Below, in pieces: positions 45,171 to 62,399 of a stretch of DNA of 64,000 bases. The translations under genes and the position numbers were made by a program. Below the pieces are notes generated by a model that worked only from the letters and a program-made list of their open reading frames with translations, ran no database searches and was not told where the DNA came from. How positions within the stretch are numbered: position 1 is the stretch's first letter; the number at the start of each line of letters is the position of its first letter. Source of the DNA: Bacteroidota bacterium (GTDB taxonomy: Bacteria; Bacteroidota; Bacteroidia; Cytophagales; UBA9547); NCBI GenBank assembly GCA_004293915.1, contig RDZG01000069.1, positions 2,626-66,625 on the forward strand, in the 5' to 3' direction.

Positions 45171-45277
45171 TCAATCAAAACAAGATTTCAAATATAGATT
45201 ATGTAGCTATATTTTAAATACACAACTATAAATATTAACGAATAATTTTTGATTTTTAATTTAATTTTATAGATTTG

Positions 45278-45298: not shown

Positions 45299-45320
45299 TA
45301 AAAAAATCAAATGTGATTTT

Positions 45321-45340: not shown

Positions 45341-45346
45341 AACACT

Positions 45347-45883
45347 GTGTTAGAAACACTTATTACATCCAAAACTAGGATAAAACTTTTATTAAAATTT
45401 TTTTTAAATACGCATACAACTGCTTATTTGCGAGGTTTAGAAACCGAAACTGGTGATTCTACAAATGCCATTAGGCTAGAACTCAATAGATTAGAAGCGG
45501 CTGGAATGTTAAAATCTTTTGAGGTTGGGAACAAAAAAAAATACCAGGCAAATCATGCTCATCCGCTTTTTAGCGAAATAAAATCATTAATTAAAAAATA
45601 TGTTGGTATAGATGTTGTAATCGAAAATATAATAAACAGATTAGGAAAACTCGATGCTGTTTATCTAACAGGTTCGTTTGCAAAAGGCATTGATAATGAA
45701 GTAATTGACTTAGTTTTTATAGGAAATATCGATCACATATTTTTGGCAGAACTAACTCATAAAGCCGAAAAATTATTACTCAAAAAAATAAAATACATTA
45801 TATACAATGTAGATGAAGGAAAAATTGAAGTATTGAATTTTTCAGAAGAAAATTTTTTACTCCTTTGGAATAATGAAAACTGA
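45347..45883 (+). CDS. Winged-HTH regulator fused to a minimal nucleotidyltransferase-like domain
   Basis: LITSKTRIKLL, YLRGL, NAIRLELNRL; C-terminal YLTGSFAKG...IDLVFIG. Confidence 0.8.
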   Translation: MLETLITSKTRIKLLLKFFLNTHTTAYLRGLETETGDSTNAIRLELNRLEAAGMLKSFEVGNKKKYQANHAHPLFSEIKSLIKKYVGIDVVIENIINRLGKLDAVYLTGSFAKGIDNEVIDLVFIGNIDHIFLAELTHKAEKLLLKKIKYIIYNVDEGKIEVLNFSEENFLLLWNNEN

Positions 45884-46385
45884 GCCTATAAAACATTGGA
45901 TGGCAATATATACTAAGCCAAAAAACGAGCGAAAAGTATTTGATAAACTCCAAAAGTTTGGTTTCGAAGTATATCTTCCGCTTCATAAAGTTGTGAGACA
46001 ATGGAGTGATAGGAAAAAAAAAATATTAGTACCACTCATTTCTTCGTATGTCTTTGTGAAAACAGATGAAGCCAATCGTTTGGCAGTTTTAAAAACAATT
46101 GGAGTCCTTAATTTTGTATTTTGGCTTGGCAAGCCAGCAATTATTCAAGATATTGAAATAGAGCGAATTAAATATTTTTTAAAAGAAGCTATAAATCATG
46201 AAATTATTATTGAAAACATGGCAGTTGGAGATATGGCTATGGTTTCTTCTGGTCATTTCAAAGGACAAAAAGTAGAAATTGTTGATGCAGATAATAAAGA
46301 ATATTTTGTAAATTTGGTTTCATTAGGAATGAGATTACGCCTTAGTAAATTGGATGTCCAAAAAATTACGCATGCGCATATCTGA
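45873..46385 (+). CDS. upxY: UpxY-family (NusG paralog) transcription antiterminator
   Basis: WMAIYTKPKNERKV, YLPL, RQWSDRKKK..PLISSYVFV, KPAII, KOW-like GHFKG. Confidence 0.9.
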   Translation: MKTEPIKHWMAIYTKPKNERKVFDKLQKFGFEVYLPLHKVVRQWSDRKKKILVPLISSYVFVKTDEANRLAVLKTIGVLNFVFWLGKPAIIQDIEIERIKYFLKEAINHEIIIENMAVGDMAMVSSGHFKGQKVEIVDADNKEYFVNLVSLGMRLRLSKLDVQKITHAHI

Positions 46386-46656
46386 ATTTGAAAAACGTGT
46401 TTTTATCGAAACAGTAAAAGAAATAGATTCTGAGGCAAATATTTTTCTTTTTGGTTCTAGAACTGATGATAATAAACGAGGTGGAGATATTGATTTATTA
46501 GTACATTCTCAGAAAATAGATCTACGAAAAGAAATGCAAATTCAAAAAGATTTTTTTTTAAGATTAGAAGAGCAAAAAATAGACTTAGTAGTTACAAAAG
46601 ATTTCTCTGAACCATTTGTACAATATATTAAGCCAACATTAATTCCTCTAATATGA
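46372..46656 (+). CDS. MNT (minimal nucleotidyltransferase) antitoxin
   Basis: FLFGSRTDDNKRGGDIDLL (GSx10DxD), EQKIDLV; likely start MRISE at 46372. Confidence 0.88.
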   Translation: MRISEFEKRVFIETVKEIDSEANIFLFGSRTDDNKRGGDIDLLVHSQKIDLRKEMQIQKDFFLRLEEQKIDLVVTKDFSEPFVQYIKPTLIPLI

Positions 46657-47093
46657 CTGACAAAGAGTATTTATTTAAGGAATTAAAAGATTTATTAAGT
46701 GCTTGTGAAGTTTTAAAGTATTCGTTTGAAAAAACAAAGCCACTACTCAAAAAAGAAGATTATTCTCCTGATGAGGCAAATGACATTGAATCATTTACTA
46801 GCAGATTTGCTAGAATAAGTGATATGTTAGTTCAAAAAACATTAAGAATGATTTATGAAATAGAGCTCGACAAAGTAGATTCTGTGCGTGATAGGATAAT
46901 GAAAGCGGAGAAAATGGATTTGAATAAATCTGCTTCTGATTTAATAGAAATAAGAAAGTTAAGGAATGAAATAGCTCATGATTATGCAGGCAAAAGGTTT
47001 GAAGAACTTTTTAAATTAGCCTCAGTCTATTGTGAAACCATTTTTGATATTGTAGAAAGAATAGAAAATTATATTTTGAAAAAATACTTATAA
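46653..47093 (+). CDS. HEPN-domain RNase toxin
   Basis: RFARISD, RNEIAHDY (Rx4HxY); ATGA overlap with MNT. Confidence 0.85.
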   Translation: MTDKEYLFKELKDLLSACEVLKYSFEKTKPLLKKEDYSPDEANDIESFTSRFARISDMLVQKTLRMIYEIELDKVDSVRDRIMKAEKMDLNKSASDLIEIRKLRNEIAHDYAGKRFEELFKLASVYCETIFDIVERIENYILKKYL

Positions 47094-47377
47094 TGGAAAA
47101 TTCACCAGAAATAAAGGCTTTTATCAGAGAAAATAGTTCTCTTTTTTGGTATACCCCAGAAGCAGAAAAAGAAAATATCGACCATGAGTTTTTGGTGGAA
47201 CATATTTTAAACTATGGAGATTTGGATGCGGTGGTAAAGCTTATAAAAATATTGGGGGTAGAAACAGTTGGAAAAATTTTTAGATATACAACAGGTTTTA
47301 GTGAAAGAAGAAAAAATAATTACTTTGAACTCACTTACAATTATTTCGATTTGATATTCAAAAAACATGCATTTTAA
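47093..47377 (+). CDS. Small FW-motif protein (DUF6922-like), putative partner of AbiEii
   Basis: SLFWY..LVEHILNYGD; translationally coupled to the AbiEii gene. Confidence 0.65.
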   Translation: MENSPEIKAFIRENSSLFWYTPEAEKENIDHEFLVEHILNYGDLDAVVKLIKILGVETVGKIFRYTTGFSERRKNNYFELTYNYFDLIFKKHAF

Positions 47378-47984
47378 TATACTTTCTGAAAATCAAACAA
47401 AAATTTTACCTTACCTAAAACATTATAAAAAAAGTTATTATTTGGTTGAAGGTACAGCAATTGCACTTCAAATAGGGCACAGAAAATCCATAGATTTTGA
47501 TTTGTTTTCTGCAAAAAAACTCGTTTTTAAAAAAATTCATGAAGGGCTATCTAAAATACCATTTGAAAAAAAGATAAGATTTCAAGATACTGATCAAATA
47601 CATTTAGATGTTTTAGATGTTAAACTAACATTTTTTGAATATACTTATTCTATTATTCACGAAGTAAAAATTAATGATGTATTAACTATGCCAAACCTAT
47701 TGACATTGGCTGCAATGAAAGGTTTTGCTTTAGGAAGAAGGTCTAAATGGAAGGATTATGTTGATTTATACTTTTTAATTAAAAATCATTTTACTATAGA
47801 AGAAATCGCAAACGAAGTTGAAAGAATATTTCCAAACCAGTCTTCTCAAAAGTTGATAAGACAACAATTAGCTTATCATAAAGATATAGACTTTAAAGAG
47901 CAAGTAGAATATCTTATTCCAAACCCTCCAAAGGAGCAAGAAGTAAAAGATTTTTTAATAGAAAAAGCAATAGATATTTTATAA
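47367..47984 (+). CDS. AbiEii/AbiGii-family nucleotidyltransferase (GGTA reads EGTA)
   Basis: YLVEGTAIALQIGHRKSIDFD, LAAMK, RSKWKDYVDLY. Confidence 0.85.
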   Translation: MHFNILSENQTKILPYLKHYKKSYYLVEGTAIALQIGHRKSIDFDLFSAKKLVFKKIHEGLSKIPFEKKIRFQDTDQIHLDVLDVKLTFFEYTYSIIHEVKINDVLTMPNLLTLAAMKGFALGRRSKWKDYVDLYFLIKNHFTIEEIANEVERIFPNQSSQKLIRQQLAYHKDIDFKEQVEYLIPNPPKEQEVKDFLIEKAIDIL

Positions 47985-48842
47985 ATGAACCAACAAAATA
48001 ACCAGCAAAACTGGGATACCATCATAAAGCCCCAAAGTTCGCTCTTTGAATTGCCACTAAAAGACCTTTGGCATTATAGGGATTTATTGGTTTTGTTTGT
48101 TCGAAGAGATTTTGTGAGTTTTTATAAACAAACTGTTTTAGGTCCGATTTGGTTTTTTGTACAACCTATTTTTACTACCTTAATTTATACTTTTGTGTTT
48201 GGTAATTTGGCTGCAATTTCTACAGATGGACTTCCAAAACCGCTATTTTATTTGGCTGGAATCACTTGTTGGAACTATTTTTCGGAATGTTTAAGTAAAA
48301 CTTCTACTGTTTTTAAAGACAATGCCAATATTTTTGGTAAAGTTTACTTTCCACGTTTAATCATGCCTTTGAGTATTGTGGCTTCAAATCTTATCAAATT
48401 TGGTGTACAATTTGCCTTGTTTTTAGTTGCTATTGTCTATTTCAAATGTACTGGTTCGAGTTTTAATCCAAATATGTATATCTTACTTTTTCCATTTTTA
48501 GTACTTTTAATGGCATTGCAAGGTTTGGGATTAGGTATGATAATATCGGCATTAACTACAAAATATAGAGATTTGAGTTTTTTAGTAACTTTTGGTGTAC
48601 AATTATTAATGTATGCCACTACGGTAATTTATCCACTTTCGACAGCACCCGAAAAATATAAATTTATAATAGCACTCAACCCAATGACTGCAATTATAGA
48701 AACATTTCGCTACGGGTTTTTAGGTCAGGGTTCGTTTTCGTGGTTTTATCTTGGTTTATGCACAAGTTTTACTTTTGTGATTACCATTTTGGGTGTTTTG
48801 ATATTTAATAAAGTTGAAAAAACGTTTATTGATACGGTTTAA
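47985..48842 (+). CDS. wzm: Polysaccharide ABC exporter permease
   Basis: YRDLL..RRDF..YKQTVLGPIW, KVYFPR, YRDL, NPMT..IETFR. Confidence 0.93.
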   Translation: MNQQNNQQNWDTIIKPQSSLFELPLKDLWHYRDLLVLFVRRDFVSFYKQTVLGPIWFFVQPIFTTLIYTFVFGNLAAISTDGLPKPLFYLAGITCWNYFSECLSKTSTVFKDNANIFGKVYFPRLIMPLSIVASNLIKFGVQFALFLVAIVYFKCTGSSFNPNMYILLFPFLVLLMALQGLGLGMIISALTTKYRDLSFLVTFGVQLLMYATTVIYPLSTAPEKYKFIIALNPMTAIIETFRYGFLGQGSFSWFYLGLCTSFTFVITILGVLIFNKVEKTFIDTV

Positions 48843-48887
48843 ATTAATAATAAATAGTATATTGCTTCATAAAAATGTGGAATTAAC

Positions 48888-49484
48888 ATGAATATGCTCG
48901 ATGAATTAGGTTCGATAGTTTTAGATACACATCGTTTGGGTAGTTTTTCTGATGATGAATTTTATCATTTTTGTTTAGATAACAGAAATTTAAAATTTGA
49001 GAGAGATGCACAATCTAACATTATTCTAATTCCTAATTCAGGAGGAATTATTGGGAATTACAATGCTGAAATATTAGCAGAAATAGGAATCTGGAGTAGA
49101 ATATCAAAAACAGGAATTTGTTTTGATTCATCTACTGCTTTCAAACTTCCAAATTCAGCAGTTCGTTCACCTGATGCTGCTTGGATTCAAAGCGAAAGAT
49201 GGAATACTTTATCAAATAAAGAAAAGGAACAATTCCCTCCATTATGCCCTGATTTTGTAATAGAAATAAAATCTTCATCAGATTCTTTGCTCAATTTGAA
49301 AGATAAAATGAAGGAATGGATGGCTAATGGTTGTAAATTAGCTTGGCTTATCAATCCTGAAGAAAGTTTAACATATTGTTATTATGATAATCAAGAATAT
49401 GCTATTTCTTTTGAAGAAATATTGAGTGGACAATCGATTTTAAAAGGCTTTGAAATTCAATTAAAAGATATTTTTAGTAAATGA
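48888..49484 (+). CDS. Uma2-family endonuclease-fold protein
   Basis: FDSSTAFKLPN, RSPDAAW, FPPLCPDFVIE, KMKEW, LAWLINP. Confidence 0.9.
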   Translation: MNMLDELGSIVLDTHRLGSFSDDEFYHFCLDNRNLKFERDAQSNIILIPNSGGIIGNYNAEILAEIGIWSRISKTGICFDSSTAFKLPNSAVRSPDAAWIQSERWNTLSNKEKEQFPPLCPDFVIEIKSSSDSLLNLKDKMKEWMANGCKLAWLINPEESLTYCYYDNQEYAISFEEILSGQSILKGFEIQLKDIFSK

Positions 49485-49537
49485 TACATTTCCTTCTTTA
49501 GTTTAACCAAGTTTAAATTACAAAAACATTTACATAC

Positions 49538-49774
49538 ATGACAACAGCTGCTATTCAACATCAAATTATCAATATTTTACCCAGAGTTGAGAATAAAAAA
49601 ATATTGAAAGCCATACACGCCATTTTAGAACAAGAAGCCAAGCCTATCAACCTTTCGCAAGCCCAAATGGACGAACTTGATAGACGTGAAGCTGACTATT
49701 TGAGCGGCAAAGGAAAAAGTTATTCATGGGAAGAAGTTGAAGATATGATTTTGAATGGCAAAAAAATAAAATGA
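49538..49774 (+). CDS. Addiction-module antitoxin
   Basis: LSQAQMDELDRR..Y..G....SWEEV; ATGA-coupled to the toxin. Confidence 0.8.
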   Translation: MTTAAIQHQIINILPRVENKKILKAIHAILEQEAKPINLSQAQMDELDRREADYLSGKGKSYSWEEVEDMILNGKKIK

Positions 49775-50067
49775 TTAGTTATGAATTAGAAATTAGGGAA
49801 GAAGCACAGCAAGAGTTGAATGATGGCTATATTTGGTATGAATTTCAACAAGATGGAATTGGGAAAAAATTTATTTCGCTAGTCAAGGAGTATATCAATA
49901 ATCTTAAAATAGCACCATTTCAAAACCCTTTAATTTATAAAAAGAAAAGAGCTGTATTCATTCAAGACTTTCCATATCAAATTATATATGCTGTATATGA
50001 AACTAAAATTGTAATATATTCTGTATTTCATACCAAACGTAATCCTAAAATTTGGAAGAAAAGATGA
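49771..50067 (+). CDS. RelE/ParE-family toxin
   Basis: EAQQEL...WYE....G.G..F, FPYQIIY, VFHTKRNP..W. Confidence 0.88.
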   Translation: MISYELEIREEAQQELNDGYIWYEFQQDGIGKKFISLVKEYINNLKIAPFQNPLIYKKKRAVFIQDFPYQIIYAVYETKIVIYSVFHTKRNPKIWKKR

Positions 50068-50193
50068 AAGAATCGTTGCAAATAAGCCCTACTTACCATT
50101 TACTATTATAATAATCAAGCCTAAATTATTCATTTTCTTGATTAATTTAATTTTGAAAAGTTTTTAAAATTAGTTTTTAAATATTTCATATAA

Positions 50194-50973
50194 ATGATAA
50201 ATTTCCTTCTATTTATAGCCAAACTTTTGCCTCTCAAACTCAGGAGTACGTACTATTATAGAGTATTTAGAAAAATTAAAGCCCTAGAAAATCAAGATTT
50301 TGAATCTATTTCATTGGTTTTTACAAAAGATGTAAAAATTACAGGTTTGAAAAGCGATTTAATTTCTCAGCATATTTTATGTACTGGTTACTATGAATTA
50401 AATCTTTCCAAATTAGTCCTAAGAATTGCTTAAGAAGGGGGTAATATGCTCGATGTAGGTGCTAATATTGGATATTTTAGTACTTTGTTTGCTTCACAAA
50501 AAGCTACAAATAAAGTATATGCCTTTGAACCATCGCCTAGGAATATTGCATTTTTAAATAAAAATATTCAAAAAAATAGTCTCAAAAACATTGAAATTGT
50601 TCCTCATGCGGTTGCAAATAAAAACGGAACTACTTATTTTGAAATAGGACCAGCAGAGCAAACAGGTTGGGGTGGTATAGCCGAAACTAAATCAAGTACT
50701 ACTCAAGAAGTAAAAGTTATGACGCTAGACTCTTTTCTGGAAAATAAAAATATCATTATTGATTTACTCAAAATAGATATTGAAGGACATGATTTAGAAG
50801 CCATTGAAGGAGCAATGAATTCAATTTTAACCAAAAAAATTAAACGAATTGTGTTTGAATATTATTCAGAGAAGAATGTGATGAACGAAGAAATTATAAA
50901 ACAAATCTTGTCAAACCCAGATTTCAAAATAAGTGAATTGGAGAACGGGAATTATTTATTAGAATGTCAATAG
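50194..50973 (+). pseudogene. FkbM-family methyltransferase interrupted by an in-frame TAA at 50431-50433
   Basis: ILCTGYYE..LRIA*EGGNMLDVGANIG..FEP..KIDIEG all in one frame. Confidence 0.85.
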
Positions 50974-51068
50974 TATTTTAGGATGGGCTAATTGTAATGG
51001 ACATTAATAAAAATGCGACTACTTTTATTCGTTTTATTATTAATTAAATATCACAGTCAATAATTAAA

Positions 51069-51356
51069 ATGAGAATTTCGAGAAATCAACAAGATTTTTT
51101 ATCTACATATTGGAATAAAATAGACAATTCTTGTTTAGTATATTTATTTGGTTCTCGAGCTGATGATACTAAAAAAGGTGGCGACATAGATATACTGTTA
51201 TTAACTGACAAAAAACTACATCACAGCCAAATATTTAAAATGAAACAATCTTTTTATTTACTTTTTGGTGAGCAAAAAATAGATATTATTAATTTTGAAA
51301 AAAATGAAGAAAATGCCTTTAAAAATTATATTTTAAGCTACGCAAAAATCTTATAG
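51069..51356 (+). CDS. MNT antitoxin (second, diverged copy)
   Basis: YLFGSRADDTKKGGDIDIL, GEQKIDI. Confidence 0.88.
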   Translation: MRISRNQQDFLSTYWNKIDNSCLVYLFGSRADDTKKGGDIDILLLTDKKLHHSQIFKMKQSFYLLFGEQKIDIINFEKNEENAFKNYILSYAKIL

Positions 51357-51363
51357 AATAGAT

Positions 51364-51813
51364 ATGAATAATTTATTTTTAATAGCTTATAAAGAATCGT
51401 ACAAAAAATTTGAAATTGCAATGTTAGGGCTTCAAACATCATTTGAGCATTGTCAAAAAATAGGAATAAAACCAAACTATACTTTTGAAGAAACAGAAGC
51501 TTTTGATGCACTAATCATAAAATTGACAAGAAATTCGGATATTTTTTTTCAACAAATTATTAAAGGATATTTTAAACTTAAAGGCGAAGATCGACTTTTG
51601 TTTATTGATAGATTAAATTTGCTTGAAAAAATGGAGGTCATCACAAATACCGATGAACTTTTAAGTCTTAAAAGTTTTAGAAATCAAGCTGTACATGAAT
51701 ATTCTTATGTCGATTTTCAATCGTTGTATGAAGAAGCACTTGTTTTGACTCCAGTTTTAAAAAAATCAGCACATCTTTTTTTTGAACATTTAAAAAAAGA
51801 TAATGTATTATAA
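51364..51813 (+). CDS. HEPN-domain RNase toxin (second)
   Basis: FIDRLNLLEK, RNQAVHEY (Rx4HxY). Confidence 0.82.
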   Translation: MNNLFLIAYKESYKKFEIAMLGLQTSFEHCQKIGIKPNYTFEETEAFDALIIKLTRNSDIFFQQIIKGYFKLKGEDRLLFIDRLNLLEKMEVITNTDELLSLKSFRNQAVHEYSYVDFQSLYEEALVLTPVLKKSAHLFFEHLKKDNVL

Positions 51814-51816
51814 TTA

Positions 51817-52104
51817 ATGGAAATCGAAGAAAAAAAGAAATATCTTAAAAAAGCATTTTGGGATAGACAAATCTCTGGCGATGAATTATTGGCTATTTTA
51901 GAAAAAAGAATGGAAGCAAGCCATGATGTAACTTTACCCAAATTGTACGTGCGTTTGTTGGAAACATATAATTGGTACACAATTTTAAATTTAATTTCAT
52001 ATGACCAAAGAATAGAAATTGTTTCTGAAAAATTCACAAATAAAATATGGAACAAACCAATAAGGACTAGATTTGAATATGCAAGAAGATTATTATCAAA
52101 GTAA
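51817..52104 (+). CDS. Small FWD-motif protein, putative partner of AbiEii
   Basis: KAFWD..LYVRLLE...WY; overlaps the AbiEii start. Confidence 0.6.
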   Translation: MEIEEKKKYLKKAFWDRQISGDELLAILEKRMEASHDVTLPKLYVRLLETYNWYTILNLISYDQRIEIVSEKFTNKIWNKPIRTRFEYARRLLSK

Positions 52105-52753
52105 ATTATATCCTCTTCAGGATAAAGTTTTAAAAATAATTGAACATAATGGTACTGATTTTTATCTTACTGGTGGCACTGCAATTAGTAGAGCTTATTT
52201 CAATCACAGATTTTCAGATGATTTAGATTTTTTTGTAAATCATAATCCAGATTTTTTGAATGAATTTAAGAGTATCTATAGCTTGTTTAAAGATTTTGAC
52301 ATAAAAACATCAACTTTATCTGAATCATTTGCTAGGGTATTTATTACAGAAGGTGATTGTGTATTGAAAATGGATTTTGTAAACGATGTTAAGTTTAGAA
52401 AAGGAGAAGTAATTCCAACACCACTATTTTATAGGACAGACACTGTTTTAAATATCTTAAGCAATAAAATATCCGCACTTACTAGAGATGAACCTAAAGA
52501 CATTTCAGATATTCTGGTTATTTCTAGCAATACTAATTTTAATTGGATAGAAATTATAGATGATGCCAAAAATAAAGACATGAGTGTGGATGAGCTTGAA
52601 ATTGTAAAAACGTTGACAAATTTTGATATAAATCGCTTGAAATCTATACATTGGTTATATGATATTGATATATTTAAAATGGAAAATCAACTTAATATTA
52701 TCATCCAAGATATACTTATGGGTAGTCAAAACTCCCTTTGTTTAACATATTAA
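52073..52753 (+). CDS. AbiEii-family nucleotidyltransferase (second)
   Basis: LYPLQD, FYLTGGTAISRAYFNHRFSDDLDFF, NKISAL..DEPKDISD. Confidence 0.9.
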   Translation: MNMQEDYYQSKLYPLQDKVLKIIEHNGTDFYLTGGTAISRAYFNHRFSDDLDFFVNHNPDFLNEFKSIYSLFKDFDIKTSTLSESFARVFITEGDCVLKMDFVNDVKFRKGEVIPTPLFYRTDTVLNILSNKISALTRDEPKDISDILVISSNTNFNWIEIIDDAKNKDMSVDELEIVKTLTNFDINRLKSIHWLYDIDIFKMENQLNIIIQDILMGSQNSLCLTY

Positions 52754-52787
52754 TACGAAATTCACTATTTTTGTAAAAAACTAAAAA

Positions 52788-53000
52788 ATGAATATTCAAA
52801 GGCATAATTTGACGCAGCCACAAATAGAATTTGTGAAATTTTTAGGAAATAGAAACATCTCAGATCAAGAAATTGGAGATATAAAGCGATTAATTTCTCA
52901 TTATTATATCATAAAAGCAGATTTGTTGATGGATAATATTTGGCAAGAAAAAGGACTTTCCGAACAAAAAATTATTGAAATATTAAATGCTGTTTTGTAA
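52788..53000 (+). CDS. Putative antitoxin upstream of the PIN toxin
   Basis: 70 aa, LTQPQIEF..IKRLIS....D..W; TATTTTTG promoter-like site just upstream. Confidence 0.65.
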   Translation: MNIQRHNLTQPQIEFVKFLGNRNISDQEIGDIKRLISHYYIIKADLLMDNIWQEKGLSEQKIIEILNAVL

Positions 53001-53006
53001 ACTATT

Positions 53007-53426
53007 GTGAGAATTGTATTAGATACTAACTGTTTGCTAGTAATTGTTCCTAAGCAATCACAATTTAGAGCATTATTTGATTATATTTTATCAGGAAAAC
53101 TTGAAATGGTTATTACTACAGAAATACTATTTGAGTATGAAGAGCAACTTTCATTGTTTTATTCGCCAGAATATGCAAAACTAGTTGTTAACGCTATTTG
53201 CAATTTGCCAAATACAAAAGAAGTGAATCCCATCTATTTCAATTGGCTTTTAATACAAAATGATAATGATGATAATAAATTTGTGGATGCTTACATTGCA
53301 GGACAAGCGGAATACATAATCACAAATGATAAACATTTTCAAGAACTTTCAAAAATTGAATTCCCAAAAGTATCTTGCATTAAGCTTAAAGATTTTATGA
53401 ATTTAAAAATAACACATAACTTATAA
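53007..53426 (+). CDS. PIN-domain toxin (VapC-like)
   Basis: IVLDTN, EILFEYEE, DDNKFVDAY, ITNDKHF. Confidence 0.9.
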   Translation: MRIVLDTNCLLVIVPKQSQFRALFDYILSGKLEMVITTEILFEYEEQLSLFYSPEYAKLVVNAICNLPNTKEVNPIYFNWLLIQNDNDDNKFVDAYIAGQAEYIITNDKHFQELSKIEFPKVSCIKLKDFMNLKITHNL

Positions 53427-53438
53427 TTCATAATTATT

Positions 53439-54692
53439 TTGTCAAACATAGCCATACAAGTAGAAAATTTAAGTAAAGCCTATCAGTTAGGAGAAATTGG
53501 AACTGGAACTATTTCTCGTGATATCGAGCGGTGGTGGGCAAAAATGCGTGGCAAAGAAGATCCTTTTCTAAAAATTGGACAAACTAATGATCGCACCCTT
53601 AAAGCAGGAGAAAGCGATGTGGTTTGGAGTTTGAAAGACATCAATTTCGAAATAGAGCAAGGACAAGCCGTTGGCATCATTGGTAGAAATGGGGCAGGGA
53701 AAAGTACATTACTAAAAATATTGAGTAGAGTGACTTCTCCTACAACAGGGAGCATAAAACTGAAAGGAAGAGTAGCATCGTTGCTAGAAGTGGGTACTGG
53801 TTTTCATCCTGAACTCACTGGCAGAGAAAATATTTTTCTCAATGGTGCAATTTTAGGAATGCGAAAAGCTGAAATTATACGAAAATTTGATGAAATTGTG
53901 GCTTTTGCAGGCGTAGAACGCTATATTGATACTCCTGTAAAACGCTATAGTTCAGGGATGTATGTACGTTTGGCTTTTGCAGTAGCTGCTCATTTGGAAA
54001 GTGAAATATTAATTGTAGATGAAGTACTTGCCGTAGGCGATGCCGAGTTTCAAAAAAAATGCCTGGGCAAAATGGGCGATGTAAGCAAGAACGAGGGGAG
54101 GACGGTGCTTTTTGTGAGTCATAATATGGATGCAATAAAAGGAACTTGTACTAATTGTATTTTATTAAATAAAGGTAAATTGACCAAATATAGTAATACT
54201 GCAGATACAATAAATGAATATCTATTTAGTAAAAATTCTACTCTAATTTCAAATAGCAATTCATCAATAAAGCTTAATGAATTAGTAGAAATAGAATATT
54301 TTTATCTTTCAAGTCATTCTATAGAAAGTTTTGAAGAATTGAGGTATGATTTTAAACTAGCAAACAAAGAAGCCAATAAATTTCAATCAATTGTAATATT
54401 AATTTCCGATGAATTTAATCACAGAATCGCAATAGCAGACTTACGACATCAAGAATTATTCAAAGATTTCAAGCATGGAGAATCATTAAGTATATCAGGC
54501 ACGATTAATCAAATCCCATTAATTGCTGGTACATATTCAATAGGTATCTATATTGAATCACTCTTATTTTCTGGAAATATTTTTGGAATAGTACAGTTTG
54601 AATTACAAGAAAAACTAAATGATATTGTTCTATATGATAAAAGTGTAAGAGGAAAAATTAACTTAAAACATCATTTTAAATTTGCAAGATGA
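53439..54692 (+). CDS. wzt: Polysaccharide ABC exporter ATP-binding protein with C-terminal domain
   Basis: GRNGAGKSTLLK, GFHPELTGREN, KRYSSGMYVRLAFA, VDEVLAVGD, VSH. Confidence 0.95.
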   Translation: MSNIAIQVENLSKAYQLGEIGTGTISRDIERWWAKMRGKEDPFLKIGQTNDRTLKAGESDVVWSLKDINFEIEQGQAVGIIGRNGAGKSTLLKILSRVTSPTTGSIKLKGRVASLLEVGTGFHPELTGRENIFLNGAILGMRKAEIIRKFDEIVAFAGVERYIDTPVKRYSSGMYVRLAFAVAAHLESEILIVDEVLAVGDAEFQKKCLGKMGDVSKNEGRTVLFVSHNMDAIKGTCTNCILLNKGKLTKYSNTADTINEYLFSKNSTLISNSNSSIKLNELVEIEYFYLSSHSIESFEELRYDFKLANKEANKFQSIVILISDEFNHRIAIADLRHQELFKDFKHGESLSISGTINQIPLIAGTYSIGIYIESLLFSGNIFGIVQFELQEKLNDIVLYDKSVRGKINLKHHFKFAR

Positions 54693-55456
54693 AAAAAATA
54701 ATCAAATACTATATTTTCAATTTATTAGGTTACTTTAAATATTTTAATTGTAAAGTTTTTTTTCCAAGAAATTCATTGATTTTTAAAATTTGTATTGAAC
54801 AAGGAATTTATGAAAAAAGAATCTTAGATATTATTGCAATTTATAGTAATAAAGGAATTGTTTTAGATGTTGGAGCAAATATTGGATTGATTTCTGTTGC
54901 TATTTTAAGAATGTTACCTGAAATAAAAGTTTACTCTTTCGAACCTTCTAAGCATACTCTTCAATTTTTGTTAAAAACAAGGGGGGATAGCATCTATAAG
55001 ACAAGATGGGAAATAGTTGGTAAAGCAGTTGGAAATAAACTAGATGATTTGTATGTCATAAATGGGATTGATACAGATTCGGCATTTAATAAAATGACAA
55101 CTCAAGTTAATTCGGAAAATGAGGGCAATAAAGTAAGTCAAATAACTATTGACTCATTTTGGAATGAATTAGGTAGACCAAAGGTTGATGCAATAAAGAT
55201 AGATATAGAGGGTTATGATTTTTTTGCATTAAAGAGTGCTTTTAATTGTATAATTAGCTGTAAACCAGCCATAATCATCGAATGGACAACTGAATTAATA
55301 AGTGCAAATCAAGTGACAGATGAAATGTTAATAGATTTTTGTAAAGAAATAAATTATAATTTATACACTTTGAATTCCTTTAATAAGGTAGGAAATATTA
55401 ATGAATTTAAACTGGCAAAATTATTAGATATTAATTTTTTATTAATTGCCAATTAA
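54689..55456 (+). CDS. FkbM-family methyltransferase
   Basis: LDVGANIG, FEPS, IKIDIEG. Confidence 0.9.
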   Translation: MKKIIKYYIFNLLGYFKYFNCKVFFPRNSLIFKICIEQGIYEKRILDIIAIYSNKGIVLDVGANIGLISVAILRMLPEIKVYSFEPSKHTLQFLLKTRGDSIYKTRWEIVGKAVGNKLDDLYVINGIDTDSAFNKMTTQVNSENEGNKVSQITIDSFWNELGRPKVDAIKIDIEGYDFFALKSAFNCIISCKPAIIIEWTTELISANQVTDEMLIDFCKEINYNLYTLNSFNKVGNINEFKLAKLLDINFLLIAN

Positions 55457-55459
55457 TTA

Positions 55460-56383
55460 TTGAAATACTCAATCTCGTATATAATTTCTACCAGGAATCG
55501 TTTATCTTTTCTTAAAATCACTCTTGGACAATTAATTTCTGAATTGCAAGAGGATGAAGAAGTTGTAGTAGTAGATAGTAACAGCACAGATGGGGCAAAA
55601 GAATATTTAGAAAATCTTTACAATGACAATAAAATTCACCAGTTTATTTCAGAATCTGATAGAAACCAAGCCCATGGCTGGAATAAAGCCATGTTGATGG
55701 CAAAAGGTGAAATTATTAAGAAAGTCATAGATGATGATTTGATTTGCTTATCTGCAGTGAGATTGTGTAAAGATTTTATGTTCAACAATCCAGAAATAGA
55801 TATTTGCATATCAAATGATATGAGTGTAACTCTTGGCAATAAGGTGGAAGATATTGGTTTTCATTCTAGATTGAACCAATTTAAAGACTGGAAAGCAGGT
55901 AAAAGCAAGTCGTTTTCGTTTGGTGATGTTCACATGCTAATAAGAAAAACAAGTTTACCTTATATTGGACTTTATGATACAAGTTTTACAATGATGGACT
56001 GGGAATATTCGTTAAGAATTTCATATTTGAGAGCAAATATAGCCTACTACACTGGTTTTAATGCACTGAGTATAAGTCACGGAGCTTCTATTAGTTCTAA
56101 TACCTCTCAAAAAAAATTAAAACTTGAATCCAAAAGAGCATGTCCCATGTATGAGTATGCTGGAGATGCATCCCAAATTAGTTTTTGGTCTAAAATTAAA
56201 ATTTTTATCGGAAAGTATATTTTATTTAGATTTAAAAAAAATAAAACAATAGTTAGTGAGGAAATTTTATCTATTCAAGATATTAATAATTTTTATGGCA
56301 ATTATCAGAACTTTCTAATTGAATATAATAAGGACAATGTTAATATTTTTTCATTTGAAAAATCACAATTGAATATCTCTTGA
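55460..56383 (+). CDS. Glycosyltransferase family 2
   Basis: ISYIISTRNR, VVVDSNSTDG, WNKA, DDD. Confidence 0.85.
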   Translation: MKYSISYIISTRNRLSFLKITLGQLISELQEDEEVVVVDSNSTDGAKEYLENLYNDNKIHQFISESDRNQAHGWNKAMLMAKGEIIKKVIDDDLICLSAVRLCKDFMFNNPEIDICISNDMSVTLGNKVEDIGFHSRLNQFKDWKAGKSKSFSFGDVHMLIRKTSLPYIGLYDTSFTMMDWEYSLRISYLRANIAYYTGFNALSISHGASISSNTSQKKLKLESKRACPMYEYAGDASQISFWSKIKIFIGKYILFRFKKNKTIVSEEILSIQDINNFYGNYQNFLIEYNKDNVNIFSFEKSQLNIS

Positions 56384-57387
56384 AAAAGAACATTAAACTT
56401 CAATTCCGAAATGGATTAAATCTAGAAACTTTCAAAAAAGAAGTTTTTGATGTTAATAAAATATCTGAATCATATCAATTCGAAGAATCCAATCAACCTG
56501 ATTTTATTATTTTTGGACCTTATGGAAACCATATTCCATCCAAATCATATAAATATAAACGTATAGGTTATTTTTGTGAAAACATAGTTCCTGATATGAA
56601 TACTTGTGAATTTGGATTTGGCATGATGAGGGAAGAAAGCATTAAAAATCCAAACTATTTCCACATTCAATGGCATGGTTTCAATCCAGAAAAGCTTATT
56701 AAAAGCACTGATGTTGATTATGACAAGATAATCGATTCAAAAACCAAATTTTGTAACTTTATTTATTCTCACAAAGTCTCATATAGAGAACGTTTTTTTG
56801 TCCAACTATCTAGATACAAAAAGGTAGATGCTCCTGGTAAGTCAATGAATAATATTTCGTCTATTGATGCTTTATACCCTGAAAATAGATGGAGAGCTAA
56901 ACGACTTTTTCAATTAGATTATAAATTTACTCTGGCTTTGGAAAACTATTCATACCCTGGTTATCAAACAGAAAAATTATATGATAGTATGCTATCTGAT
57001 ACAATACCTATTTATGTTGGTGATCCTTTAGTTGGTGAATTATTTAATACTCAAAGTTTTGTATCTTTATATAATCATGAGGAATCATCTTTCATAATCA
57101 AAAAAATAGAAGATTTTGCTCAGTTTAGTTTTACTGATATACTTCCTACATTCCATAAGCTACCCCAACATCGTATAAGTAGAAAACTTAAATCTGTTTT
57201 AAGAGATTATAAAATGAAATTGTTAATGGATAAGTATATGGATAGTATTATCGATACAATTATAGACATAGATAAAAATGATGAGAAGTATTTGAAAATG
57301 TTCACTGAGCCATGGTTGAAAAACAACAATGTTCCTGAAAATAGCTATTCTGATAATCATTGGAAGAAAATCTTTGAAGGATCATGA
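56380..57387 (+). CDS. Glycosyltransferase family 10 (alpha-1,3-fucosyltransferase-like)
   Basis: KFCNFIYS, RERFF, YKFTLALENYSYPGYQTEKLYD, IPIY.G. Confidence 0.85.
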   Translation: MKKNIKLQFRNGLNLETFKKEVFDVNKISESYQFEESNQPDFIIFGPYGNHIPSKSYKYKRIGYFCENIVPDMNTCEFGFGMMREESIKNPNYFHIQWHGFNPEKLIKSTDVDYDKIIDSKTKFCNFIYSHKVSYRERFFVQLSRYKKVDAPGKSMNNISSIDALYPENRWRAKRLFQLDYKFTLALENYSYPGYQTEKLYDSMLSDTIPIYVGDPLVGELFNTQSFVSLYNHEESSFIIKKIEDFAQFSFTDILPTFHKLPQHRISRKLKSVLRDYKMKLLMDKYMDSIIDTIIDIDKNDEKYLKMFTEPWLKNNNVPENSYSDNHWKKIFEGS

Positions 57388-58394
57388 ATCAAAAACCTTT
57401 AGTTTCAATAATTATACCATTGTATAATGCCGATAAATATTTGTCCGAAACAATTAAAAGCGTCATCAACCAAACCTATACTCATTGGGAACTTTTAATC
57501 ATAAATGATGGAAGTACTGATCAGAGCCTTGAAGTAGCTAGGAAATTTGTATCTGCTAAGATAAAAGTATTTGATCAAGAGAACAAAGGAGCAGGCGCAG
57601 CCCGAAATTTTGGGTTAAAGGAAGCAAAAGGTGAGTACATACAATTTTTAGATGCCGATGATTTACTGAGTTCAAATAAAATTGAGGTTCAAGTAAGACT
57701 GTTAGAAAATACATCTGAAAAAGTTGCAGTTTGTCCTACTGTTCATTTTTTTGATGGACAAGATCTTAGTTCAATTCATCCATCTGCTTATGAAAACTCA
57801 TTTCTTTTTTCTACTGGCAATACTTTTGAATTTTTGATTAACCTATATGGTGGCTCTAACAATAAAGGTTCAATGATTCAAACTAATGCTTGGTTAGTAC
57901 CAGCAAATCTAATAAAGAAGGCTGGAAATTGGGAAGAATTTTATTCACCTGATGATGATGGAGAGTTTTTTTGTAGGGTTCTATTGAGTGCAAAAGGCGT
58001 AGTTTATACACCTAATTGCAGCAATTATTATAGAAAATTCAAAAATGGGTCTTCATTAGCATCTACAAAAGAAAAAAGAGCACTTGAAGGAATTTTTAAA
58101 TCATTGATGCTAAAAAAAAAGCATTTGACTCTGAAATCAAATGATTCAAGAATTAATAAAGTAATAGCTAGGGCAGCCATTGAAATAGCCTATTTATCTT
58201 ATCCAAAGTACAAAGAATTAACAAATATTATCTTAAATGAAATAGAAGCTTTAGGAGGGACTAATTATATTCCAGTATTAGGTGGGAAAGTAGCCGAAAC
58301 TTTAAAGAAAGTATTTGGATGGAAAGTAGCAAAATACTTAATTGAGTTTAATATAAGTATAGGCACGAATTTTTTCGGCAAGTATGGAAAATGA
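57384..58394 (+). CDS. Glycosyltransferase family 2
   Basis: VSIIIPLYN, INDGSTD, NKGAGAARN, FLDADD. Confidence 0.92.
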   Translation: MNQKPLVSIIIPLYNADKYLSETIKSVINQTYTHWELLIINDGSTDQSLEVARKFVSAKIKVFDQENKGAGAARNFGLKEAKGEYIQFLDADDLLSSNKIEVQVRLLENTSEKVAVCPTVHFFDGQDLSSIHPSAYENSFLFSTGNTFEFLINLYGGSNNKGSMIQTNAWLVPANLIKKAGNWEEFYSPDDDGEFFCRVLLSAKGVVYTPNCSNYYRKFKNGSSLASTKEKRALEGIFKSLMLKKKHLTLKSNDSRINKVIARAAIEIAYLSYPKYKELTNIILNEIEALGGTNYIPVLGGKVAETLKKVFGWKVAKYLIEFNISIGTNFFGKYGK

Positions 58395-59343
58395 ATCTAA
58401 AAGCATAATTACAATTGCAACTGGTAAAGATATTTACATTCAAATGGCATGTAATTTGGCTATGTCTTTTTTATTATGGAATGTAAACAACAATATTTCT
58501 TTCTACTTAGTAACAGATAATAGCGAATCAGTTCCTGAATGTTTGAAAAATAAAATAAATATCATTCTAATAAATTCTGTGGACTACCCTACAGGATTTT
58601 CCATTAAACTATATTTAGATAAATTTATTCAAACCGATAAAAATCTCTTTATTGATTGTGATTGTCTTATTTACGGTAATTTATCTTACGTATTTGATTT
58701 ATTTGAAGGCAAAACAATGTCAGCAATTGGTGAAGAGTGGAATAAAGGTGAATTCTTTTGTTCAGTGGAAAAAATGATTAAAGTAATGAATATTCCCCAT
58801 ATGCCAGTCTTTGTAGGTGCTTTATATTATGTTCAAAAGTCTAATATCACTAGTCAAATATTTGAATTTGCACGCAAAACTCAAAAAAAATATGATGAAC
58901 TCGGATTTGTTAGATTAAGAGGAAAAGAAAATGAAGAACCGCTTTTATCTGTTGCAATGGCTAAGTTTAATCAAACTGTGATAAAAGATAATTTTCAGAT
59001 TAAAGCTGATATGATGTCTTTTACAGAGATTCAGTCAAATATAATAAATGGAAAAGCTCATTTATCAAATAATAATGGTAAATACCCGACTTGGCAAAAA
59101 TGTGATGAATCATTTCCTTTAATTGTTCATTTTAATTCATCTTTTACAGAAGGGTTTCAATACAAGACAGAAATATTCAGACTTAAATTATACAGGAAAA
59201 TTAATTTAAAATTAATTACTAACGTGTTAGCAGGTGTGTTTTTGTATTTTCCAGGGAAATCAAAGCAAATATTAAAATCAAAGTTTAGACCTTTTTATCA
59301 TAAGTTGTTAGGTATTAGAACTTTACAGAACACAAACAGATAG
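58384..59343 (+). CDS. Putative GT-A fold glycosyltransferase (GT8-like)
   Basis: TIATG, LFIDCD (DxD), EEPLLS, IVHF. Confidence 0.6.
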   Translation: MENESKSIITIATGKDIYIQMACNLAMSFLLWNVNNNISFYLVTDNSESVPECLKNKINIILINSVDYPTGFSIKLYLDKFIQTDKNLFIDCDCLIYGNLSYVFDLFEGKTMSAIGEEWNKGEFFCSVEKMIKVMNIPHMPVFVGALYYVQKSNITSQIFEFARKTQKKYDELGFVRLRGKENEEPLLSVAMAKFNQTVIKDNFQIKADMMSFTEIQSNIINGKAHLSNNNGKYPTWQKCDESFPLIVHFNSSFTEGFQYKTEIFRLKLYRKINLKLITNVLAGVFLYFPGKSKQILKSKFRPFYHKLLGIRTLQNTNR

Positions 59344-59352
59344 CTTTATTAT

Positions 59353-59463
59353 ATGGTTTTATACCTATCATTTTTACAATCCGAAATTCCGCACCCTTTC
59401 CCAGCATATTCTTTTTGGGAATACTATATAAAAAAGAATTAAGGAGTCCAGGCATGAATGGGT
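59353..59463 (+). pseudogene. Relic 5' fragment of a homolog of the 60282 glycosyltransferase
   Basis: MVLYLSFLQSEIPHPFPAYSFWEYYIK versus MIVYLSFFQSKIPHPIPAYSFWEYYIK; then a 2-nt frameshift. Confidence 0.85.
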
Positions 59464-59520
59464 GTCATTTTTAAAGAATTATTATAAAGCAGGTTAATCT
59501 CTACTTAAAATAAGTCCCAA

Positions 59521-60285
59521 ATGAACATATTAGCAAAAATTATAAATTCAATAGAGTTTAGGCTTAAATACTATTTTAAGCATAAAGGAAGAAGAAATGA
59601 ATTAAAAAATACGATAGCAGCTAAGCTTTCGATCGCAGAAATTGACTCATTAGAACTTCTTCAAATTTGCAAAGCCGAAAGCATTGATGTCAAATGTATA
59701 TATGATATTGGTGCGAATATTGGTACATGGGCAATGCTTGCAAAAGCAGTATTTCCGAGTGCAAGTTTTGAATGTTTTGAGCCATTAAATTTACACTTTT
59801 CTGATTTTGAAAAAAACACAAAACTTCTTCAATATATTCATTTACATAAAGTTGCATTAGGAAACACGAACGCATTTCTTAATTTAAACATAACTTCACA
59901 ATCCGATTCATCAAGCATTTTACAACTAACAAAATTACAAACTGATGTATTCGGTATTAATAAAATAAAGGAATCGCGAGTCGAAGTAGTGATTTTAGAT
60001 GATTATATACTTAAACATAATATTGCATATCCCGATTTAATGAAACTTGATGTTCAAGGCTTCGAACTTGAAACACTCAAAGGAGCAAAAAAATGTATGG
60101 CGTATTGCAAATTTATAATATTAGAAGTAAGTTTTGTTGAGTTTTATGTAGGACAGCCATTGTTTGAAGAAGTAATTAATTTCATGTTTGAAAACAATTT
60201 TAAAGTAGTTTCTTTTGGATTTAATACAGCTACCGGCATTAAAATTTCTCAAACAGATATATTATTTAGAAACAAAAATATATGA
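59521..60285 (+). CDS. FkbM-family methyltransferase
   Basis: YDIGANIG, FEP, SSSIL, MKLDVQGFE, EVSF..FY.GQPLF, QTD. Confidence 0.9.
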   Translation: MNILAKIINSIEFRLKYYFKHKGRRNELKNTIAAKLSIAEIDSLELLQICKAESIDVKCIYDIGANIGTWAMLAKAVFPSASFECFEPLNLHFSDFEKNTKLLQYIHLHKVALGNTNAFLNLNITSQSDSSSILQLTKLQTDVFGINKIKESRVEVVILDDYILKHNIAYPDLMKLDVQGFELETLKGAKKCMAYCKFIILEVSFVEFYVGQPLFEEVINFMFENNFKVVSFGFNTATGIKISQTDILFRNKNI

Positions 60286-62398: not shown

Positions 62399-62399
62399 A

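Follow-up and report, generated by a model that had tools for sequence, protein, structure and literature searches.

Accessory cassettes at the head of a UpxY-led Wzm/Wzt glycan export operon in a Cytophagales genome turn over at gene junctions

We analysed a 64,000-nt window of contig RDZG01000069.1 (positions 2,626 to 66,625) from the 3.85-Mb assembly of a Cytophagales bacterium (GCA_004293915.1, here G000), in which wzm and wzt, the permease and ATPase genes of a glycan ABC exporter, are parted by predicted toxin–antitoxin (TA) modules downstream of a gene for a UpxY-type, NusG-like antiterminator. All coordinates of the locus are positions in this window. In two congeners the same gene junctions carry different cargo, and nucleotide identity changes abruptly at the borders of the modules. 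From these sequences we consider it fairly probable that the head of the glycan operon is an integrase-free recombination hotspot that collects autonomous TA and defence-candidate cassettes, and that the link of these cassettes to the glycan is positional, not mechanistic.

The accessory array lies on the plus strand from 45347 to 54692, with orf178 as its first gene and wzt as its last, and is part of an unbroken plus-strand gene string that runs from 45347 to the window end. Its first half comprises orf178, upxY, MNT1, HEPN1, s94, AbiEii1, wzm, Uma2, an antitoxin gene and ParE, which are followed by an FkbM methyltransferase frame, MNT2, HEPN2, s95, AbiEii2, s70, PIN_3 and wzt. From orf178 through wzm, the distances between consecutive genes are -11, -32, -4, -1, -11 and 0 nt, and the stop codon of wzm is 4596 nt away from the start of wzt. 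An initial annotation, made by a model from the letters alone, had described two MNT-HEPN pairs, two pairs of a small open reading frame (ORF) with AbiEii, one RelE/ParE pair, one PIN pair and a Uma2 gene, all in one orientation, with overlapping or abutting genes up to wzm and ~4.6 kb between wzm and wzt. Pfam and NCBIfam searches place every one of these gene classes where it had been reported, and the co-orientation of all genes, the overlap or abutment within the orf178-to-wzm block and the separation of wzm from wzt are likewise borne out. The annotation had missed orf178, which precedes upxY, so that the accessory array begins upstream of upxY.

The same annotation had seen no transposase, attC-like repeat or clear terminator, and our protein-family, repeat and terminator scans found none of these either. 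No transposase or integrase family is present among the 35 window proteins scanned, no terminator-like site was found on the plus strand within 45000-56000, no attC-like, miniature inverted-repeat transposable element-like, hairpin or genome-wide repeats were found at the module boundaries, and no inverted repeats bracket the TA modules of this window. With neither an integrase or transposase family nor a repeated boundary element, the array is not an integron cassette array. The G+C content is low across the region (~0.24-0.32), and there is no compositional jump over the locus.

Two congeners, both with fragmented assemblies, were available for comparison, namely G001 (locus L001; L038 repeats a stretch already covered) and G002 (loci L002 and L003); ORFs in relatives are our own crude calls. 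In G001, wzm and wzt are 10,094 nt apart. In G002 the two genes are on different contigs, and the interval between them (~9.3 kb) is a presumed join of two contigs that overlap the same G000 segment. Between upxY and wzm, G001 carries 7.6 kb with a HipA_2-like kinase, a 285-aa ORF, an MNT-HEPN pair, s94/AbiEii and DUF1801, then a C5 DNA methylase, a NOV_C protein, R.HinP1I and three unknown ORFs. Between its wzm and wzt are an AAA_14/DUF4143 ATPase, Uma2, a 1247-aa SNF2 helicase (DpdE/ZorD-like in PADLOC) and an Asp protease, followed by a second Uma2, MNT, HepT-like_2, s95/AbiEii2 and an IS200-like gene. The order up to wzm in G002 is a SecB-like ORF, MNT-HEPN, s94, AbiEii1, a 121-aa ORF and wzm; beyond it come an acyltransferase, Uma2 with an internal TAA, the SNF2 helicase, an Asp protease and DUF3791/DUF3990, then the C-terminal half of ParE, an fkbM remnant, s95/AbiEii2 and s70/PIN. 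Some of the G002 copies appear broken: s94 and PIN each match in two pieces, the former apparently frameshifted, and Uma2 has one TAA stop.

When G000 is aligned with the congener loci by blastn, every difference falls at a gene boundary. The upxY|MNT1 junction has a 1.77-kb insert in G001. At AbiEii1|wzm, where the gap in G000 is 0 nt, there are ~400 nt in G002 (a 396-nt alignment gap) and 4.3 kb in G001, and at the stop codon of wzm a 1.47-kb insert is found in G001 and the acyltransferase, at the same point, in G002. The segment 50981-51807, which comprises a spacer and MNT2-HEPN2, is absent from G002 (L003). The same flanking genes thus hold different cargo in close relatives, which is what defines a hotspot, and the check that the initial annotation had proposed, a comparison of orthologous loci for variable TA content at the same junctions, is positive in both G001 and G002.

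Nucleotide identity between G000 and G002, followed in sliding windows of 150 nt, is mosaic, with sharp steps at module borders: 54-63% in MNT1-HEPN1, 87-98% in s94-AbiEii1, 79-94% in wzm, 49-69% in s95-AbiEii2, 93-97% in s70-PIN and 83-93% in wzt. MNT1 has 90% amino-acid identity to its counterpart in G001 (L038) and 51% to that in G002 (L002), and AbiEii1 is 95% identical to L002 (G002) and 58% to L038 (G001). Between the MNT/HepT-like_2 pair that precedes s95 in G001 and MNT2/HEPN2, blastp gave nothing below E 0.03, and the two pairs are not orthologous. The identity steps, together with the non-orthologous pairs, argue for module-wise replacement by recombination and not for gradual divergence. 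Ends of flanking genes are duplicated around inserts in all three genomes: in G000 the duplicated stretch is 61 nt from the end of Uma2 and brackets the ParE module, in G002 it is ~75 nt from the wzm 3' end and brackets the acyltransferase (G000 48768-48843 matches twice), and in G001 it is 45 nt from the wzt 5' end and brackets the IS200-like gene.

We propose that cassettes are gained, swapped and lost exactly at gene junctions in the promoter-proximal part of the Wzm/Wzt operon. These junctions would be orf178|upxY, upxY|MNT, AbiEii|wzm, wzm|Uma2, the point after Uma2, fkbM|s95, and AbiEii2 or PIN|wzt. Exchange with related loci would be anchored by homology in the conserved upxY, wzm and wzt and would proceed, without an integrase or an attC-type site, by homologous or homology-facilitated recombination; the duplicated gene ends would be the expected trace of single-crossover (Campbell-type) or imprecise events. 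Each module would be an independent selfish addiction or phage-defence module. The cassettes are probably read through from the operon promoter, possibly aided by weak promoters of their own, and the co-orientation, the tight packing and the lack of a plus-strand terminator-like site make such read-through plausible. Antitermination of the UpxY type may render the inserts non-polar for wzm, wzt and the glycosyltransferase genes and enable an operon to carry and express such foreign DNA.

The wzm|wzt junction is a recurrent insertion point in Bacteroidota. A scan with the Wzm protein over one genome per species gave 80 loci, to which 10 loci of relatives were added, and exclusion of two repeats (L011 and L038) from these 90 left 88. 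In 75 of the 88, wzm and wzt are on one strand within the stretch retrieved; the gap between them is <=130 nt in 55 loci, 181 nt in 1 and >300 nt in 19. The gap annotation covers L001 and 42 ORFs of the other 18 split loci, with five tiny or opposite-strand ORFs omitted. Twelve of the 19 split loci hold TA, Uma2, 23S-rRNA-IVS-protein (IVP) or other selfish-type genes. Among them, IVP genes occur in L023, L043, L063 and L067, DUF2683 with YoeB or PIN in L065 and L073, DUF2683 fragments beside FkbM in L068 and L071, DUF6922 in L077, Uma2 in L026, an Asp protease, AAA_14, MNT, PIN and YhcG in L061, and the G001 set given above in L001. Four split loci contain glycan genes only (L007, L054, L069 and L070) and three contain unknown ORFs only (L006, L012 and L076). 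Inverted arms bracket the IVP gene in L023 (8969-9442) and in L063 (10849-11326); none were found around the IVP genes of L043 and L067. In L023 the arms consist of a repeated 7-nt unit and are 88-94% complementary. Two other loci in which wzm and wzt are split, L061 (15110-15259) and L048 (12513-12704), have duplicated fragments of the wzt 5' end upstream of the complete gene, a junction duplication like those in this genus.

In the 11 loci in which the interval between upxY and wzm was annotated (29 of its 50 ORFs), it usually holds asparagine synthase and/or GT4 genes, with IVP genes in L043 and L086; in this genus it holds accessory cassettes only. Across 31 genomes (relatives plus G000), the homologues of wzm and wzt are adjacent in most. 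The best matches to the two genes are on different contigs in G004, G010, G011, G018, G019, G022, G024 and G025, and since in G010 both are deep inside large contigs, wzm and wzt may truly occupy separate loci in some relatives.

The weaving of TA-type genes into co-oriented gene strings is a habit of the whole genome. The nuo operon of G000 reads nuoA, a 77-aa ORF, nuoB, nuoC, an 80-aa ORF, nuoD, Uma2, Uma2, nuoE, dxr and a 70-aa ORF with ParE, and the two Uma2 genes between nuoD and nuoE occupy 5731-6982 of L093 (G000:C87:40000-49348). One or two Uma2 genes are found at the nuoD|nuoE junction in G009, G010 and G011 as well, and the junction is closed (13-138 nt) in G003, G005, G006, G007, G012 and G023. 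The suf operon has the order iron repressor, DUF1801, Uma2, zinc-finger ORF, MNT, HEPN (NTase_sub_bind), sufC, two 86-aa ORFs, sufD, sufS and sufE. Here Uma2, the zf-DksA/TraR ORF, MNT and the NTase_sub_bind HEPN lie directly upstream of sufC on the minus strand, at 3487-6520 of L094 (G000:C53:77000-90000). The two 86-aa ORFs between sufC and sufD match no family. A third co-oriented defence/TA string, on the minus strand at 6435-11196 of L091 (G000:C89:21000-34774), precedes ileS and consists of MNT, AAA_15, HNH, MNT, HepT, a 68-aa ORF, RelE, MNT, HepT and GmrSD_N.

Six-frame family searches of the G000 assembly yielded 3 AbiEii, 17 Polbeta-type MNT, 16 ParE, 6 PIN_3 and 16 Uma2 matches (58 in total), counts that are lower bounds, as MNT1 and ParE of the locus itself were not retrieved. 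Five of the 58 fall within 5.9 kb at the locus, and no other 7-kb window is as dense; those that come next have 4 and 3, and by our own arithmetic ~0.1 TA-type matches are expected per 7 kb. The clustering exceeds chance. By crude ORF calls, 36 of the 48 TA-type matches that have two neighbours are co-oriented with both. Co-orientation with gaps of <150 nt on both sides is seen for 24 of the 48, compared with 1106 of 3227 among all ORFs, a comparison inflated by the fact that the neighbour of a toxin gene is its antitoxin gene. Among the observations that, according to the initial annotation, would together refute its model is an equal density of TA genes in other operons of the genome; the glycan locus is the densest, but the same weaving is present in nuo, in suf and upstream of ileS, which in part speaks against the model.

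The cassettes themselves are all on the plus strand, and two of them are MNT-HEPN pairs. MNT1 (46354..46656), a minimal nucleotidyltransferase of the antitoxin type (NTP_transf_2, 29.3 bits, cut-off 21), precedes HEPN1 (46653..47093), a HEPN-fold RNase-type toxin candidate with RNEIAH at residue 104 and Pfam matches that are all below cut-off. The second pair consists of MNT2 (51069..51356; Polbeta, 41.7 bits) and HEPN2 (51364..51813; RNQAVH at residue 106, HepT-like match below cut-off). Both MNTs contain the GSx10DID motif (GSRTDDNKRGGDID and GSRADDTKKGGDID), both HEPNs carry Rx4H at the expected position, and each MNT gene is directly upstream of its HEPN gene (distance -4 nt, an overlap, in pair 1 and a gap of 7 nt in pair 2), which is the motif pattern of type VII systems. 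HEPN1 and HEPN2 are paralogues (24% identity, E 1.7e-8). A HEPN profile found nothing significant in the PDB by sequence (best E 0.65). An AlphaFold2 model of HEPN1, built from a four-sequence alignment with a pLDDT of 88.4, has as its best Foldseek match the HEPN toxin of the HEPN-MNT pair 8xdj_C (E 4.7e-4, TM 0.72/0.79), and other top matches are the HEPN toxins 8yuf and 7ae6 and the complex 8xeh; as modelled, HEPN1 has the fold of a HEPN toxin. The NCBIfam equivalog models for MntA (NF047752) and HepT (NF047751) have cut-offs of 60 bits, and here the MNTs score 26.5 and 32.9 bits, HEPN2 scores 20.9 bits and HEPN1 gives no match. Judged by these scores, the pairs are distant relatives of MntA/HepT and not equivalogs.

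Two further modules combine an AbiEii-family nucleotidyltransferase with a small ORF. AbiEii1 (47367..47984; PF08843, 39.8 bits, cut-off 22.5; PADLOC AbiEii weak), whose stop abuts the start of wzm with a gap of 0 nt, is preceded by the 94-aa s94 (47093..47377), a distant DUF6922 relative (hhalign probability 92.8%, E 3.9e-7). AbiEii2 (52073..52753; AbiEii/DUF2204; PF08843, 39.4 bits; PADLOC AbiEii, 35.8 bits), which has a GGT...DDLD motif, follows the 95-aa s95 (51817..52104). No family above cut-off was found for s95, and it is kept together with AbiEii2 in L001, L003 and L023. An AbiE system is defined by an AbiEi-type antitoxin with a winged helix-turn-helix upstream of AbiEii. Neither of the 94-95-aa partners matches AbiEi in Pfam, NCBIfam or PADLOC, and by these family searches s94/AbiEii1 and s95/AbiEii2 are therefore AbiEii-family toxin candidates with a partner other than AbiEi. 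Against the PDB, AbiEii1 gave nothing significant by sequence. A search for AbiEii1 homologues in 301 genomes of the order, made without reference to glycan genes, found matches in 34, from which 12 loci were fetched. In 11 of the 12 an ORF of ~90-115 aa lies directly upstream of the AbiEii homologue; the exception is L105, in which the neighbouring 109-aa small ORF is on the opposite strand. Judging from this recurrence, s94/AbiEii1 is a real two-gene unit. The order MNT-HEPN-small ORF-AbiEii occurs twice in G000 and twice in G001. As a general four-gene unit this order was rejected, with MNT/HEPN upstream in 0 of the 12 AbiEii1-homologue loci of other genera. A DUF6922-like ORF paired with an AbiEii-family gene is found directly upstream of wzm in L012 and L023.

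Uma2 (48888..49484; PF05685, 106 bits) is a solo gene of the PD-(D/E)XK type. The number of Uma2 copies ranges from 0 to 26 among 31 close-relative genomes, with 16 in G000, 19 in G001 and 5 in G002. It is followed by an Unstab_antitox/TIGR02574 antitoxin gene (49538..49774; 35.1 bits with a cut-off of 23.3, and 41 bits with a cut-off of 31.9) and a ParE/RelE-family toxin candidate (49771..50067; ParE_toxin, 26.2 bits, cut-off 23). The two genes overlap by 4 nt and both products score above cut-off, as in type II ParDE/RelBE modules. Bracketing this module are the two copies of the 61-nt direct repeat, 74% identical to each other: copy 1 (49437..49497, plus strand) is the 3' end of Uma2 plus 13 nt, and copy 2 (50150..50210, plus strand) covers spacer and the start of the fkbM frame.

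The FkbM methyltransferase frame (50194..50973) is interrupted by an in-frame TAA (50431-50433) and is a pseudogene or split gene. In G002 (L003), which additionally lacks 50448-50894, it likewise ends after residue 79, and the break is on this comparison most likely inherited and not a sequencing error. Over the 12 nt past the TAA come GAAGGGGG and five bases, followed by an ATG (50446), an arrangement that could allow separate translation of the 175-aa catalytic part. In L003 most of this catalytic part is deleted. The last module before wzt combines s70 (52788..53000), a 70-aa antitoxin candidate with no family match that is 97% identical in L003, where it likewise stands beside a PIN homologue, with the PIN_3/TIGR00305 toxin candidate (53007..53426; 56.6 bits with a cut-off of 27, and 41.6 bits with a cut-off of 29.15). 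Neither s70 nor PIN has a tblastn or blastn match in L001 (G001).

At the head of the array, orf178 (45347..45883) encodes a 178-aa protein with a winged helix-turn-helix and a nucleotidyltransferase-like part that matches the PADLOC defence-candidate family PDC-M05A (86.5 bits), and overlaps upxY by 11 nt. Homologues with 39-56% identity adjoin wzm or upxY in three unrelated Bacteroidota loci, L007 (8439-8909), L032 (9467-9943) and L023 (1936-2457), and no tblastn match was found in the same-genus locus L038. The upxY product (45873..46385; NF033644, 125.7 bits, cut-off 100) is a NusG-like antiterminator with NGN and KOW domains (NusG 71.3 bits, KOW 25.4 bits) and is the only copy above the NF033644 cut-off in the G000 genome. 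Its gene is at the 5' end of a polysaccharide operon and in the same orientation, as is typical of the UpxY family, and upxY is co-oriented upstream of wzm in 35 other loci. The exporter itself is of the Wzm/Wzt type, with the permease gene wzm (47985..48842; ABC2_membrane, 81 bits), homologues of which are present in 29 of 31 relatives, and the ATPase gene wzt (53439..54692; ABC_tran, 80 bits; Wzt_C match weak at 17.6 bits and NF050108 at 174 bits, both below cut-off) in a cluster with GT2, GT10 and GT4 genes downstream. The rest of the glycan locus (54689..64000, plus strand) contains no TA-type gene according to family scans and is arranged as FkbM methyltransferase, GT2, GT10 fucosyltransferase, GT2, a 319-aa ORF, FkbM methyltransferase, a GT1-like gene, an acyltransferase, a 328-aa ORF and GT4.

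A candidate operon promoter, TTTG-N18-TAGATTTG, is located at 45248..45277 on the plus strand, 70 nt upstream of orf178. It fits a -33/-7 pattern that we take to be the Bacteroidota-type consensus, and it is the only two-box match within intergenic DNA of the locus; in the whole window the pattern has 13 matches versus 9.4 expected, a weak excess. Boxes of the -7 type have 24 matches, compared with 14.1 +/- 3.8 expected from mononucleotide shuffling, which ignores dinucleotide content. A sigma-70 promoter scan was discarded, since it gave fewer matches than shuffled sequence and is unsuited to the phylum. A 17-nt inverted pair (45241-45257 and 45302-45318, 82% complementary, 44 nt apart) surrounds the -7-like box of the candidate promoter. 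This pair, short and imperfect as it is, does not justify calling an invertible promoter or an operator, and an invertible promoter at the operon head was rejected.

Several observations weigh against an integrase-free hotspot whose cargo has nothing but its position in common with the glycan genes. The proposed recombination mechanism is based on three short duplications and mosaic identity. The position of Uma2 after wzm is kept in all three congeners, with 73-79% amino-acid identity. MNT, HEPN and AbiEii2 have kept their catalytic motifs intact, so that the cassettes are not mere debris. The s94/AbiEii-type module is co-oriented inside glycan clusters in 7 of the 12 Cytophagales loci (L096, L097, L099, L100, L101, L102 and L104) and partly in an eighth (L098), with differing contents; these loci represent only ~4-5 independent genera. 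The recurrence of this module and the retention of Uma2 may point to an association with glycan loci that is not random and is possibly functional, or the recurrence may reflect the high exchange rate of glycan loci. Finally, lone TANNTTTG boxes precede MNT1 by 38 nt, Uma2 by 111 nt, fkbM by 39 nt and s70 by 15 nt, so that internal promoters are possible and the modules may be transcribed on their own.

A broader proposal, which we hold only tentatively and think unlikely as a whole, is that the 5' part of UpxY-led Wzm/Wzt operons serves across Bacteroidota as an integrase-free "expression platform" for foreign cassettes, a functional analogue of the integron. Processive UpxY antitermination would let promoter-less inserts be expressed and remain non-polar, upxY, wzm and wzt would be the homology arms that move cassettes between species, and TA pairs, Uma2, IVP genes and the DUF6922/AbiEii module would accumulate preferentially at these junctions. 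The nuo and suf inserts indicate that UpxY is not required for such weaving.

Also improbable, in our estimate, is an adaptive defence islet, in which phage pressure favours defence cassettes beside the glycan genes that determine adsorption, so that both are exchanged together. The congener intervals do contain an R.HinP1I/C5 methylase pair, a DpdE/ZorD-like SNF2 helicase and the candidates PDC-S01 and PDC-M66A, the s94/AbiEii-type module recurs in glycan clusters of other genera, and selfish or defence-type genes occupy 12 of the 19 split wzm-wzt loci. However, an enrichment at glycan loci is expected from their high rate of recombination and transfer alone, equivalent inserts are found in nuo and suf, neither of which is a phage-receptor locus, and most of the matches are to candidate (PDC) families and not to proven systems.

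The model put forward in the initial annotation went further and tied the receptor glycan to abortive infection: silencing or deletion of the operon, or phage shut-off of its transcription, would deplete the antitoxins and free the toxins. Co-oriented genes, the overlapping or abutting block from orf178 to wzm and the lack of a plus-strand terminator-like site agree with such a coupling, as do the sole intergenic two-box promoter match upstream of orf178, the intact toxin motifs and the matches to AbiEii and several PDC defence-candidate families. On the other hand, cassettes of these types are also present in nuo, in suf and upstream of ileS, so that the arrangement is not specific to glycan genes; the cassette content differs among congeners, some copies are apparently broken, and there are candidate internal -7 boxes. 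In addition, the antitoxins of MNT-HEPN pairs work as enzymes and those of the AbiE type are not necessarily labile, so that for four of the six pairs shut-off need not release the toxin. We regard this coupling, for which no finding here speaks specifically, as improbable.

The suggestion that the TA pairs act as addiction modules preventing the loss of wzm, wzt or the whole glycan locus is more doubtful still. TA cassettes in chromosomal integron arrays have been proposed as array stabilisers, TA-type pairs flank both transporter genes here, and Uma2 and the AbiEii pairs are kept in the three congeners. Nevertheless, fkbM in the middle of the array has decayed, further so in G002, and the PIN, Uma2 and 94-aa ORF copies of G002 appear broken. 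Whole modules are present or absent between congeners and several have been replaced by non-orthologous ones, so the locus is visibly not frozen, and the stabilising role that had been suggested for it does not agree with this pattern.

That the MNT and AbiEii-like genes function within the glycan pathway instead of being TA modules is hardly credible: the s94/AbiEii-type pair does recur in glycan clusters of several genera, but the two-gene, overlapping architecture with a small partner is typical of TA modules, HEPN1 is modelled with a HEPN toxin fold, the modules vary between congeners while wzm, wzt and the glycosyltransferases stay, and homologous pairs exist in unrelated, non-glycan contexts (L103, L105, L106 and L107).

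If the hotspot reading is correct, surface-glycan operons of Bacteroidota would also park and exchange addiction and defence cassettes at precise junctions, with no dedicated recombinase. This would help to explain the frequent separation of wzm and wzt in these genomes and would call for caution when annotators infer function from such adjacency. The locus would also offer a tractable system, with one promoter and many cassettes, for asking whether antitermination shelters foreign genes.

Among known arrangements, defence-island hotspots hold variable defence cargo between conserved core genes. The present locus resembles them in its conserved flanks, variable cargo, class-for-class replacement and mix of TA, restriction–modification and helicase-type genes. 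It differs in that the anchors (upxY, wzm and wzt) all belong to a single operon, the cassettes share its orientation and in part overlap their neighbours, and G000 shows no mobile-element backbone. Chromosomal integron arrays carry many small, co-oriented, promoter-poor cassettes, TA modules included, behind one promoter, and the cassettes here are likewise small, co-oriented, apparently promoter-poor and downstream of one promoter, with TA modules among them. Unlike integrons, the locus has no integrase and no attC-like repeats, and what flanks its inserts are short stretches duplicated from the ends of adjacent genes. The IVP cassettes in the wzm-wzt gap of other loci (with inverted arms in L023 and L063) share the wzm|wzt junction and are small selfish genes in operon orientation, whereas the TA modules of this window are not bracketed by inverted repeats and come from different families.

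RfaH-type NusG paralogues turn on foreign operons whose expression NusG and Rho would otherwise suppress, according to one account (PMC7593976). Compared with the UpxY capsular operons of Bacteroides fragilis as that account describes them, the locus has the same UpxY-family NusG paralogue at the 5' end, co-oriented with the polysaccharide operon. In contrast, upxY is followed by MNT and no UpxZ-like partner was recognised, though no UpxZ model was searched; moreover, a defence-candidate gene precedes upxY, export follows the ABC-transporter route, and convincing invertible-promoter repeats were not found.

A further likeness is to TA "islands" of mixed classes, which are not explained by tandem duplication and which, in a 2009 survey, are described together with solo or paralogous Uma2 cassettes and with an MNT-HEPN pair inserted in a lysine operon of one Thermus strain and absent from another (Makarova, Wolf and Koonin 2009, PMC2701414). 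The survey terms the Uma2 family cyanobacteria-specific. Packed TA genes of mixed classes, an MNT-HEPN pair within an operon that lacks it in a relative, and Uma2 cassettes are common to both. Relative to what is described there, the island here is contained within one co-oriented glycan export operon, parts wzm from wzt, and reuses precise gene junctions in sister species. In the literature searched we found no account of TA arrays within UpxY or wzm-wzt operons, and in a HEPN survey (PMC3710099) the words polysaccharide, lipopolysaccharide and glycosyltransferase are all absent. Within that literature, such an islet at the head of a UpxY-led Wzm/Wzt operon, with junction-precise, class-for-class turnover and no integrase, seems to be undescribed, and so does the phylum-wide reuse of the wzm|wzt junction. 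As it stands, the locus clearly illustrates a process that is already known and does not represent a new mechanism.

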